This document shows positions 4,021 through 5,640 of a stretch of DNA of 13,375 nucleotides, piece by piece. This DNA comes from a virus. Made by a program: the position numbers and the translations under genes. The DNA lies in the IMG/VR virus record IMGVR_UViG_3300012983_001730; one strand, written 5' to 3'. Each line of letters starts with the position of its first letter. The first letter of the stretch is position 1. Below the pieces are notes generated by a model. That model was not told the DNA's origin. It saw nothing but the letters and a program-made list of their open reading frames with translations, and made no database searches.

Positions 4021-4290
4021 TTAGCAGTGCCATTCACACTTGACTAACCAAAAGATTCTTCGACCTTGGCGGTATCTGACTGCGTGGTCATCATACCAAC
4101 CTTTATCGAATTTTTCGATCGCCTTTTCGGCTTCCTCACGGTTTTTGTAAACCGGCTCCTTGTGGAAAGTTAAGTTACCGTGGTAACCACAACTCTCCTG
4201 AGGGTCATAAGCAAAACTGTTGAGGTCTTTCAGAATTGCTCGCTCACTTGTTGAACAATGATAGTCTAAATGTCGGATTGCGTGGCTCAT
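4021..4290 (-). CDS. Hypothetical Cys/His-containing small protein (89 aa), possibly zinc-binding.
   Basis: I chose the internal ATG at 4290 (MSHAIRHLDYHC…) because it has a good ribosome-binding site (GAGGA-6 nt-ATG). It forms an ATGA overlap with the stop of the upstream phosphoesterase gene. The longer version from the upstream ATG at 4326 lacks a ribosome-binding site. Confidence 0.55.
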   Translation of the reverse strand: MSHAIRHLDYHCSTSERAILKDLNSFAYDPQESCGYHGNLTFHKEPVYKNREEAEKAIEKFDKGWYDDHAVRYRQGRRIFWLVKCEWHC

Positions 4291-4874
4291 TCTTGTTCCT
4301 CGCTCTCCCCAAGCATTGCGATACATTCAGCAGCCTTTGCCTTAATATCCTCAATGATGGTATCAATGTCAACAGGATAGCAGTCGTGAGAGTCCATACC
4401 TACATGGTACATAAATGGAATATCCTGATAGAAATTATCTTTCTGATGGGTGTGACCATACAGATTGATAGTGTGTTCACGCAGGCTTGCTCCCTTTTCC
4501 AAATTGGAAGTCATTGTTGGGTAATGACTGATGTAGAAGCGAATCTTCTTATAAGTCACGACATCTGCGTACTTGCCGCACTCAACGACATTTGGAGCGT
4601 CTGCGTAAGCCTTAACACGAGGGTTTGTGTCATGGTTTCCTCGCATCATAATGATATGACCATTAAGACGCTTTAGGAATTCCATTCCCCTTTCAGTGTC
4701 ATTCAGCATACCGTCGCCCAGGTGATACACCGTATCCTCGGGCGCAACCACGCTATTCCATCTTTGTACGATGGCTTCATTCATATCTTCGACATTCGTG
4801 AAGCCTCTTGGTTCATACAAGAACCCTCGGTCGTGACAGAAGTGAGTATCGCTTGTGAACCAAATTTTACTCAT
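4287..4874 (-). CDS. Calcineurin-like metallophosphoesterase (MPP superfamily). It is a likely 2',3'-phosphate/cyclic-phosphate phosphoesterase partner of the adjacent polynucleotide kinase.
   Basis: MPP motifs SDTHF / GDG…D / GNHD / GHTH are present. I took the start at ATG 4874 (MSKIWFTSDTHF) because AGGAGA sits 6 nt upstream, and the ORF-track N-terminal extension lacks a ribosome-binding site. The start overlaps the last 8 nt of the kinase gene. Confidence 0.8.
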   Translation of the reverse strand: MSKIWFTSDTHFCHDRGFLYEPRGFTNVEDMNEAIVQRWNSVVAPEDTVYHLGDGMLNDTERGMEFLKRLNGHIIMMRGNHDTNPRVKAYADAPNVVECGKYADVVTYKKIRFYISHYPTMTSNLEKGASLREHTINLYGHTHQKDNFYQDIPFMYHVGMDSHDCYPVDIDTIIEDIKAKAAECIAMLGESEEQE

Positions 4875-5373
4875 TTTCTGTCTCCTCTCTTGGTGCCACA
4901 GTGAGCACCTGATATTTATATTTCTCATTCTCAGTAGGACGCTGGTACTGATGCCACATTCTACGAACTACGCTCTTAGGAACGAAAGCTCGACCAGAAC
5001 GCAAATCATTCTGTGTCAGACAAATGTCCAAAGGAATGTTGAAATCTACTGCGTACAGATTGACCACATTGCGCAAGTCCAATCTGTCGAGAACTTTATT
5101 GCGAGCCTTTTCGCTCAAGTGAGTTGCGTCGATGAAGACATTAGCAGGACCTGCCACATCTTCCAACGCCTCTTGGATTTTGGAACAAAAAGCGGAGAAT
5201 ACTTCGTTCTCACGAGCAAAATAATCTTCGTCTTCTCCAATCATGGAAAATCGAACTTCATCGCGAGAGATATGAACTCCACCAACATTGCTCATAGCGA
5301 GTTGGTTCTTAACCCAAGTAGTCTTGCCGGAACCCGGCACGCCACACATCAAAAACACATTTTTCTGCTTCAT
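4867..5373 (-). CDS. pnk: Polynucleotide 5'-hydroxyl kinase (T4 Pnk kinase-domain-like P-loop kinase).
   Basis: GVPGSGKTTW Walker A followed by ISRDEVR, DATHLSEKARNKV and VPKSVVRRMW. These parallel the GxPGSGKSTWA / NRDDxRQ / DTNLNPERR / VPxDVLRSMY motifs of the T4 PseT kinase domain. The ribosome-binding site AAGGGAGGT is present. TAAATG junction with the upstream gene. Confidence 0.8.
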   Translation of the reverse strand: MKQKNVFLMCGVPGSGKTTWVKNQLAMSNVGGVHISRDEVRFSMIGEDEDYFARENEVFSAFCSKIQEALEDVAGPANVFIDATHLSEKARNKVLDRLDLRNVVNLYAVDFNIPLDICLTQNDLRSGRAFVPKSVVRRMWHQYQRPTENEKYKYQVLTVAPREETENE

Positions 5374-5640
5374 TTACATACCTCCCTTTTCAGATTCGAT
5401 AAAGGACATAGACTCTGCAGCCTCTTCCTTATATTCTCCATTTTCAAAAGCTTCAAGAAACTCCTGAACATCTTCGTAGGTTTTACACTCGACGTGATTT
5501 ACCTCGACTTTACAAAACGGACAGTAGAGCTTCTTTCGATGATGCTTACCATGCTGGAAACCTTTGTTTCGCATCAGCGGAATACCCTTTTTACCACAGT
5601 TCATACAATAAAAATTATGCTCTACCATTGCTCTTGCCAT
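5374..5640 (-). CDS. Zinc-ribbon (2x CxxC) basic small protein, first gene of the Pnk operon.
   Basis: YCMNCGKK…YCPFCK pattern with a basic patch KGFQHGKHHRKK. The ribosome-binding site GGAGAA is 5 nt upstream of the ATG at 5640. The repeated promoter lies directly upstream. Confidence 0.6.
   Translation of the reverse strand: MARAMVEHNFYCMNCGKKGIPLMRNKGFQHGKHHRKKLYCPFCKVEVNHVECKTYEDVQEFLEAFENGEYKEEAAESMSFIESEKGGM

Follow-up and report, generated by a model that had tools for sequence, protein, structure and literature searches.

What does a virus gain from a polynucleotide kinase-like protein and a metallophosphoesterase (MPP) encoded back to back, in a stretch of DNA that holds no gene for an RNA ligase? 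The question is raised by a four-gene operon in 13,375 nucleotides of viral DNA (IMG/VR virus record IMGVR_UViG_3300012983_001730; "the window" below means this whole stretch, as analysed), which codes for a zinc-ribbon protein, a stand-alone P-loop kinase, an MPP and an 89-amino-acid (aa) protein, p89. Heal-and-seal RNA repair is a classic phage answer to host tRNA-cleaving defences; to our knowledge, the versions studied experimentally are few, namely T4 Pnkp with Rnl1, bacterial Pnkp/Hen1 and HD-Pnk.

The operon probably provides a phage with an RNA end-healing kinase and phosphoesterase, which would work with a separately encoded RNA ligase of the Rnl5 lineage; it is most likely a split and re-assorted form of a known phage counter-defence. 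The end-healing reading is well supported by gene context, because the stand-alone kinase-MPP pair is syntenic with Rnl5 ligases in other viral loci and the same phage has such a ligase.

Linkage of the kinase-phosphoesterase pair with RNA ligase genes

Gene order was compared in 79 further viral loci retrieved with a kinase profile and in 80 retrieved with a ligase profile (about 160 contigs), scored with purpose-built hidden Markov models. The kinase is a stand-alone protein in 58 of the 79 kinase-anchored loci; an MPP gene lies at most 1.5 kb downstream in 41 of these 58, abutting the kinase gene in 31, and an Rnl5-lineage ligase is present within the locus for 29 of the 41 pairs. The 80 ligase-anchored loci, which are those among the matches listed, contain a kinase in 63 cases and both kinase and MPP in 58, usually in the order Rnl5-zinc ribbon-kinase-MPP. 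The zinc-ribbon gene abuts the kinase gene on its upstream side in 22 of the 79 kinase-anchored loci; for the ligase-anchored matches listed, 63 of which include a kinase, the two genes abut in 40. Neighbour frequencies were taken from a set of 95 dereplicated kinase+MPP loci; these were chosen for having the MPP, so that the MPP figure of 94/95 in this set is circular and the unbiased counts are those of the kinase- and ligase-anchored sets. Among these 95 loci, the zinc ribbon occurs in 61, an Rnl5 ligase within 6 kb in 46 and a PIN-PhoH protein in 34. Kinase homologues with 56-69% identity, located on phage contigs of 150-190 kb, retain the order zinc ribbon, kinase, MPP, flotillin and PIN-PhoH, and the gene content upstream differs among these relatives.

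The first-pass annotation had correctly found no RNA ligase in the window, and had placed the sealing partner in the host, elsewhere in the genome or among the unassigned open reading frames (ORFs). The second of these possibilities agrees with the data: a protein of the Rnl5 lineage is encoded in the same genome, about 15 kb upstream of the kinase, and the ligase gene is adjacent to the module in many relatives. The evidence comes from a contig of 192.7 kb (L172 in our numbering of loci), which was reached via the PncA-like protein of the window and shares 96.6% nucleotide identity with it; here an RNase T gene is followed by a gene for a 477-aa protein at L172:163-1596. This protein matches two Pfam families below threshold (PHA02142 OB, 1.2e-4 and 22.8 bits; RNA_ligase, 8.9e-4 and 19.9 bits; cutoff 27), with the OB domain preceding the RNA_ligase domain, which is the Rnl5 order, and it has a marginal match to T4 Rnl2. 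An alignment of 13 family members from the gathered loci matched the Rnl5 family over the full length in a profile-profile comparison (hhalign, probability 98%, E 1.5e-13); invariant in the family are the nucleotidyltransferase motifs I (K193-M-H195-G196), III (E274), IV (E426-G427-V428-V429-x-R431) and V (K442-x-K444). The partner thus combines the N-terminal OB domain and the adenylyltransferase motifs I, III, IV and V of Rnl5 enzymes. In kinase+MPP loci that lack a canonical Rnl5, the 477-aa family fills the ligase position, abutting the kinase gene in L068 and L088; in other relatives the ligase matches NgrRnl (Rnl5) at 8.6e-51 across both the OB and the adenylyltransferase domains. On these similarities, the most fitting description of the 477-aa protein is that of a diverged member of the Rnl5 ligase lineage.

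The RNase T gene, coding for a DEDDh exonuclease, directly precedes the ligase gene in L172 (1-1596) and also in a relative (L007:832-2935).

Operon layout and predicted activities of its products

All the real genes of the window lie on the minus strand (Table 1). The stop codon of the zinc-ribbon gene (TAA) abuts the start codon of the kinase gene (GTAAATG), which begins on the next base; the kinase and MPP genes overlap by 8 nt (ATGAGTAA), and an ATGA is common to the MPP stop and the p89 start. A GGAGG-like ribosome-binding site precedes every one of the four starts, and no terminator-like site was found on the minus strand between 5699 and 4021. The coordinates and both overlaps, which the first-pass annotation had read directly from the sequence, are right; an alternative MPP start at the ATG at 4928 was rejected in favour of 4874. 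The four genes appear to be a single transcription unit, one of several with a similar promoter, in view of the shared promoter, the tight coupling and the recurrence of the promoter motif: the 29-nt motif is found again at 10099-10127 and 12261-12289 with at most three mismatches (0 expected, 200 shuffles), and hexamer matching revealed a fourth copy at 6492-6520.

Altogether, nearly identical copies of a promoter-like element (TTGATTTTTTATAAAAAATATGATATAAT) stand at the head of four transcription units of the minus strand (5699-5727, 6492-6520, 10099-10127 and 12261-12289); a strong terminator-like hairpin (6554-6518) precedes the copy at 6492-6520.

Table 1. Features of the window discussed in the text; functions are predictions.
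Feature	Coordinates	Strand	Remarks
Promoter-like site, TTGATT-17-TATAAT with TG extended -10	5699..5727	-	Directly upstream of the zinc-ribbon gene
C4 zinc-ribbon protein, 88 aa	5374..5640	-	First gene of the operon; phrog_1257 match and invariant Cys
Stand-alone Pnk-type P-loop kinase, 168 aa	4867..5373	-	Predicted 5'-OH polynucleotide kinase; Pfam, PHROG and profile matches
Dinuclear MPP, COG4186/aq_1665 type, 195 aa	4287..4874	-	Predicted end-healing enzyme
p89, 89 aa, no family	4021..4290	-	Translationally coupled to the MPP; close relatives only
Lambda-phosphatase/NinI-type MPP, 236 aa	5730..6440	-	Own promoter; neighbour upstream of the operon
Protein without family assignment, 154 aa	1779..2243	-	Frequent downstream neighbour of the kinase-MPP pair
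PIN-PhoH protein, 412 aa (predicted RNase and ATPase)	257..1495	-	PF13638 PIN_4 and PF02562 PhoH recorded for orthologues
PncA-like nicotinamidase	11654-12226	-	NAD+ island
Prs-like protein, may be Adps	10698-11471	-	NAD+ island
NAMPT-like protein, may be Namat or NadV	7852-9324	-	NAD+ island
Macro/DarG-like protein	7349-7858	-	NAD+ island; overlaps the NAMPT-like gene
NadE	6556-7347	-	NAD+ island

The kinase matches PF13671 AAA_33 (4.7e-18), phrog_505, annotated as polynucleotide kinase (5e-25), and the kinase part of the kinase-MPP-ligase family phrog_8238 (2.7e-10). In the PDB, the single sequence matches T4 Pnk, Capnocytophaga Pnkp1 and the kinase domain of Clostridium thermocellum Pnkp (CthPnkp; the kinase domain is CthPnk below); with a profile of 27 homologues the values are 4e-15 for CthPnk, 1e-13 for T4 Pnk and 3e-12 for Pnkp1. 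In the corresponding alignment, the P-loop G11-VPGSG-K17-T18 aligns with that of CthPnk, with G11, G14 and K17 invariant; also invariant are S36-R37-D38 with R41 and the DAT motif D82-A83-T84, aligned to CthPnk D38, R41 and T80, and the lid arginines R125 and R128, aligned to CthPnk R120 and R123. The base-stacking R116 is replaced by Gln in the window kinase. Residues that are essential or contact the substrate in CthPnk/T4 Pnk (Lys21/Ser22, Asp38/Asp35, Arg41/Arg38, Thr80/Thr86, Arg120/Arg123; PMC3902929) correspond to K17/T18, D38, R41, T84, R125 and R128 of the viral protein; by the roles assigned in that study, D38 is the general base, with R41 as its partner, and T84 binds the first phosphodiester. 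The sequence features of a Pnk-type kinase are therefore all found, i.e., the P-loop, the acceptor-site Asp, Arg and Thr and the lid arginines, and these matches and kept catalytic residues support the earlier proposal of a T4-Pnk-like 5'-OH kinase. The 120 homologues listed are all 121-180 aa long, the close ones being stand-alone proteins of about 150-180 aa. The viral protein is neither a trifunctional Pnkp fusion (168 aa; TIGR04075 35 bits against a cutoff of 750) nor does it carry the fused C-terminal DxDxT phosphatase of the T4 type, as it ends at residue 168; kinase-HAD fusions occur only among the most distant relatives (e.g. L046, L050 and L067).

The MPP matches PF12850 (40.2 bits against a gathering cutoff of 27) and phrog_547 (1.4e-49), and its five metal-binding motifs are invariant among 35 aligned sequences (D9-x-H11, G53-D54, G79-N80-H81-D82, H117 and H141-x-H143). 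The AlphaFold2 model (pLDDT 94) has the MPP beta-sandwich fold; the Foldseek search gave 1xm7 (Aquifex aq_1665, 4e-9) and MJ0936 (3e-5), with SapH (an Ap4A hydrolase), GpdQ and Rv0805 as further structural neighbours, and by sequence the only relatives of solved structure are aq_1665 (profile 1.8e-13) and GpdQ. Among viral structure predictions, the protein matches stand-alone proteins of many phages labelled "COG4186 predicted phosphoesterase". Judging from motifs and model, it is a genuine dinuclear metallophosphoesterase of the COG4186/aq_1665 type. The first-pass annotation had likened the kinase-MPP arrangement to that of CthPnkp; for the type of phosphatase this does not hold, since lambda phosphatase ranks 15th by Foldseek (E 0.013) and the CthPnkp phosphatase structure 4j6o, of the lambda-phosphatase clade (motifs GDxxDRG and GNHE), is absent among the listed matches. 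The resemblance to CthPnkp is one of analogy and not of common descent, because the relatives of the MPP are aq_1665, GpdQ and MJ0936 and not the lambda-phosphatase clade. An enzyme of that clade is encoded by the neighbouring gene at 5730-6440, which lies outside the interval annotated earlier and whose product matches 1g5b (1.3e-8), 4j6o (0.0024), phrog_8238 at positions 179-321 (8e-8) and TIGR04075 at positions 225-323 (0.0013); this product belongs to the same clade as the phosphatase domain of CthPnkp, and might serve as a second phosphoesterase for 3' ends or as an alternative to the first.

Thus, the calcineurin-like fold and motifs reported earlier were found, whereas the role as RNA end healer was overstated, as it is a role by association. 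That the MPP acts on RNA 3' ends is suggested by its gene linkage, by the intact active site and by the precedent of the CthPnkp and lambda phosphatases, which hydrolyse 2',3'-cyclic phosphates (PMC2190708).

Homologues of the MPP with 27-50% identity also occur alone on contigs of metagenome-assembled genomes (MAGs) and isolates, mostly of Bacillota and largely of Clostridia (L189-L229). These lone homologues suggest that the phages took the gene from the lineage of their hosts. The MPP loci without kinase in bacteria show no conserved neighbours and sit among housekeeping genes, e.g. for aminoacyl-tRNA synthetases.

The first product of the operon has four Cys residues (C12, C15, C40 and C43) that are invariant in 35 homologues, and matches phrog_1257 at 1.8e-9. 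It had been described as a basic zinc ribbon, which applies to the core (residues 1-52, isoelectric point 9.5) but not to the helical tail (4.05) or to the whole protein (6.5). The AlphaFold2 model is of moderate confidence (pLDDT 82); its top folds are zinc-ribbon proteins of about 50 residues from the large ribosomal subunit, matched weakly (E 0.03, TM-score on the target about 0.7), and this modelled likeness is at most a hint of RNA binding. Each of the 66 homologues is a small protein that stands alone and lacks Pfam domains. A function as RNA-binding or adaptor subunit is probable but speculative.

The p89 protein had been proposed as a second zinc-binding accessory protein, and only the first of the two proposals stands: relatives of p89 have S, G or Y in place of C12, C34 and C86 and keep only the C-terminal Cys, and the assignment as a Cys/His zinc protein was rejected on account of the loss of three of the four Cys. 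The protein is confined to close relatives, in which the motifs LNSFAYDPQE-x-GYHGNLTFHK and YDDHAV are conserved, and it has no match in Pfam, PHROG, NCBIfam or PADLOC. A classification of the focal proteins as components of a defence system was also discarded, as PADLOC gave zero matches for any of them.

Proposed mechanism, substrates and alternative explanations

In the proposed mechanism, one promoter would drive expression of the zinc ribbon, the kinase, the MPP and p89. The kinase, which has the residues for this reaction, would move the gamma-phosphate of a nucleoside triphosphate onto the 5'-OH of broken RNA, and the MPP, presumed to be of the Mn2+/Ni2+ type, would open and remove 2',3'-cyclic phosphate or 3'-phosphate to leave a 3'-OH, as its linkage and intact active site suggest. 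The resulting 3'-OH and 5'-phosphate ends would then be joined by the phage OB-fold/adenylyltransferase ligase of the Rnl5 lineage; the zinc ribbon would, speculatively, most likely bind the RNA substrate or bridge the enzymes.

The likely substrates are tRNAs of host or phage, or rRNA, in which defence ribonucleases of the host have made nicks, with breaks in stems included, beyond anticodon-loop cuts of the PrrC type. Stem-nicked tRNA or rRNA are considered because the partner ligase belongs to a family, Rnl5, whose enzymes seal nicks in duplex RNA, and because genes for a Thg1-like protein, RNase T and YqeY are found nearby. Repair of tRNAs cut by PrrC or RloC had been put forward in the first-pass annotation: healing and sealing of RNA as such agrees with the gene context, but a nick-sealing Rnl5 points to duplex nicks and not to single-stranded loop breaks, so that the module may act on a hybrid, or on tRNA or rRNA nicked in its stems, instead of on loop breaks as made by PrrC. 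Less likely than not is a further extension, in which the zinc ribbon, the kinase, the COG4186 MPP and the Rnl5-lineage ligase form a dedicated complex that is aided by the Thg1-like polymerase and RNase T and performs trimming, rebuilding, healing and sealing of duplex-nicked or trimmed tRNA or rRNA. If true, this would be the first physiological role for Rnl5 ligases and for COG4186/aq_1665 phosphoesterases, and would make the zinc ribbon a new specificity subunit.

Several observations weigh against end healing as the function of the operon. The activity of every component is predicted from sequence and gene context. The kinase profile retrieves PSTK, a kinase acting on tRNA-bound serine, from the PDB with a score nearly as good as those of Pnk proteins (7e-12), and 12 of the 41 kinase+MPP loci of the kinase-anchored set have no ligase within 10 kb. 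The MPP is not specific to RNA repair, as tblastn against GenBank phages detected it in 1477 records, compared with 295 for the kinase, and only 18 of 46 MPP loci from bacterial genomes and MAGs have the kinase, the others lying in variable chromosomal contexts; from these figures, it was concluded that the family appears to be one of general-purpose phosphoesterases, recruited to the kinase in these phages. Its nearest solved structure, aq_1665, is without known function, the CthPnkp phosphatase was not matched, and the MPP of the CthPnkp/lambda clade encoded next door could be the real 3' healer. Lastly, the physiological substrates of Rnl5 are unestablished and DraRnl has a DNA-repair phenotype (PMC5397189).

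Part of these points are taken up by an alternative that we regard as unlikely, in which the kinase heals 5' ends while the substrate broken down by the MPP of the operon is a small phosphoester, for example a cyclic-nucleotide immune signal or one derived from ADP-ribose (ADPR), Ap4A or an NAD-related compound, and 3' ends are healed by the neighbouring lambda-type MPP or by another enzyme. Such a role would agree with a family that is far commoner than the kinase and stands alone in bacterial chromosomes, with structural neighbours (MJ0936, SapH, GpdQ and Rv0805) that are small-molecule phosphodiesterases, with the proven 2',3'-cyclic phosphodiesterase activity of the clade of the neighbouring MPP and with the location of the operon beside an NAD+/ADPR counter-defence island. 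However, the tight and often overlapping order of kinase and MPP recurs in many lineages that have neither an NAD island nor a lambda-type MPP, and the latter is present in just 31 of the 95 kinase+MPP loci (median distance -1.36 kb). Moreover, the ADPR-1''-phosphate phosphatase of NARP1-associated operons has been assigned by experiment to a macro-domain enzyme, and a macro gene is present in the window; the MPP was rejected as a candidate for this activity on the same ground.

It is quite improbable that the module acts on nicks in DNA, or in RNA-DNA hybrids like the intermediates of replication or repair that have ribonucleotide 3' ends, and heals and seals these instead of cleaved tRNA. 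Pnk enzymes work on DNA and RNA alike, for Rnl5 ligases it is enough if the 3'-OH side of a nick in a duplex is RNA, deletion of DraRnl slows genome reassembly after irradiation (PMC5397189), and in relatives the 10 kb downstream include genes for RNase H, gyrase and topoisomerase. On the other side, the surroundings of the module repeatedly include PIN-PhoH and tRNA-specific genes (for YqeY and the Thg1-like 3'-5' polymerase), Thg1-like genes being found within 10 kb in many kinase+MPP loci, and the remaining genes of the island serve counter-defence (NAD+ reconstitution, macro, NADAR and SIR2).

Finally, it is very unlikely that the P-loop protein phosphorylates another acceptor, for example a residue attached to tRNA, like PSTK, nicotinamide riboside or some other nucleoside for the adjacent NAD pathway, or, like zeta toxins, a precursor of the cell wall, as might be proposed from its top NCBIfam match (PSTK, 1.9e-11, far under the family cutoff), from weak Pfam matches to Zeta_toxin and KTI12 and from its position beside NAD salvage genes, because D38, R41 and T84, the contacts for the 5'-OH and the first phosphodiester, are invariant, its top solved relatives are true polynucleotide kinases, it lacks in its 168 aa the C-terminal tRNA-binding domain of PSTK, the phage has a separate AAA_28 (NadR-type) kinase upstream, and its linkage across lineages is with RNA ligases and not with NAD genes. 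RNA end healing by the kinase and the MPP is thus the explanation retained here.

Genomic surroundings and relation to known systems

Some further genes recur around the kinase-MPP pair. The family of the 154-aa protein of the window, which has no significant Pfam match, is found in 52 of the 95 kinase+MPP loci at a median distance of +1.8 kb and is a candidate for an additional component; a flotillin gene comes after the module in 19 of the 95. A family of about 270 aa is inserted between kinase and MPP in 22 of the 95 loci (e.g. L169:12638-13450, L098 and L100) and has no Pfam match; its N-terminal GS-x-x-Y...D-x-D pattern may recall a nucleotidyltransferase, but an identity as RlaP has no Pfam support and is not claimed. 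In 14 kinase+MPP loci (L151:4155-5678 and 13 others), a gene some 1.6 kb downstream of that for the kinase codes for a protein of about 500 aa with DUF2828 and DUF7788/vWA domains. In the window, the flotillin/Band_7 protein (510 aa, 2439-3971, minus strand) contains a long coiled coil rich in Ala, Glu and Lys, which lifts the local GC content to 0.55 and yields a spurious antisense ORF of 544 aa (2409-4043, plus strand).

Just upstream of the operon, an NAD+ counter-defence island occupies 6556-12226 on the minus strand (Table 1); its Prs-like, NAMPT-like and macro genes form a trio that resembles the NARP1-AP pathway (bioRxiv 10.64898/2026.01.28.702374). Between the ligase and the window, L172 carries genes for the AAA_28 (NadR-type) kinase, NADAR, a formate/nitrite-transporter-like protein, SIR2, YqeY and the Thg1-like 3'-5' polymerase (L172:1624-6569), followed by a major-vault-protein-like protein of about 830 aa (complete at L172:7417-9903; window 12324-13334, minus strand) with the Pfam domain MVP_shoulder and a faint match to Vault_3. 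The vault-like protein is conserved beside Thg1 in several relatives and is unusual for a phage RNA-repair/NAD island. A variant strain, L173, adds a cytidylyltransferase-like gene, possibly for NMNAT. The proposed RNA repair is physically merged with an NAD+-reconstitution counter-defence island at this locus.

Scans for tRNA genes and for Rfam families found none, either in the window or in the loci that each scan covered, and a megablast search of GenBank phages with the whole window gave no match; Phass-1 and KLEB27-3, GenBank phages that have the MPP or the kinase, carry uninformative annotation. Close homologues come from rumen and gut metagenomes, and relatives of the MPP are found on contigs of 100-200 kb binned with MAGs of Clostridia and Bacilli, with chromosomal copies in isolates of Ruminococcaceae and Blautia; one zinc-ribbon homologue is filed under a Bacteroidales MAG. 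The best guess for the host, based on binning, is Bacillota (Clostridia). The locus represents a widespread and uncharacterised version of heal-and-seal repair in large gut and rumen phages, probably of Clostridia, and offers a concrete context for probing the roles of Rnl5 ligases and aq_1665-type phosphoesterases.

Components of this system have been noted in comparative surveys. According to the main-text passages considered here, ATP-grasp RNA ligases of jumbo phages co-occur with polynucleotide kinases and phosphoesterases (PMC7824862, PMC9503650), calcineurin-like phosphoesterases are predicted to replace HAD phosphatases in a few phage RNA-repair systems (PMC7824862), and genes for NAD+/ADP-ribose metabolism are linked to RNA-repair genes in phages (PMC7824862, PMC9503650). 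The same main-text passages of these surveys by Iyer, Burroughs and Aravind do not describe the gene order Rnl5-zinc ribbon-Pnk-COG4186, the zinc-ribbon member, the COG4186 clade of the MPP or the 477-aa ligase family. The closest solved relative of the MPP by both sequence and fold, aq_1665 (PDB 1xm7, COG4186), is a structural-genomics protein without assigned function.

By its gene architecture, the locus lies outside both the CthPnkp and the T4 Pnkp families, because neither the fusions nor the phosphatase types that characterize them were found in the operon. With CthPnkp of the Pnkp/Hen1 system (TIGR04075) it shares the set of a Pnk-type kinase, a dinuclear MPP and an ATP-dependent ligase; however, the phage has three separate genes in place of a single polypeptide of 850 aa, its MPP belongs to the COG4186/aq_1665 clade and is not lambda-phosphatase-like, its ligase, which has an OB domain at the N terminus, is an Rnl5 type, and there is a zinc-ribbon protein in addition. 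No methyltransferase family was found among the proteins scanned in general library scans, none of which was a search aimed at Hen1. T4 Pnkp (PseT), which acts with Rnl1/Rnl2, is likewise a phage-encoded Pnk with the same catalytic residues (PMC3902929) and a presumed function in the reversal of damage by host RNases; unlike T4, where the kinase is fused to a HAD (DxDxT) phosphatase, here a lone kinase is followed by an unrelated metal-dependent phosphoesterase, and the ligase partner is not Rnl1. In the HD-Pnk and ligase clusters of Runella and Deinococcus, an ATP-dependent ligase is likewise encoded next to a Pnk and a phosphoesterase that is not of the HAD type (PMC6097658), but there the HD domain is fused to the kinase, whereas here the MPP is separate, and the zinc ribbon is absent from those clusters. 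In the rnl-DR_B0095 operon of Deinococcus, DraRnl, an Rnl5 enzyme, is paired with a DEDDh exonuclease (PMC5397189), just as RNase T precedes the ligase in the phage described here.

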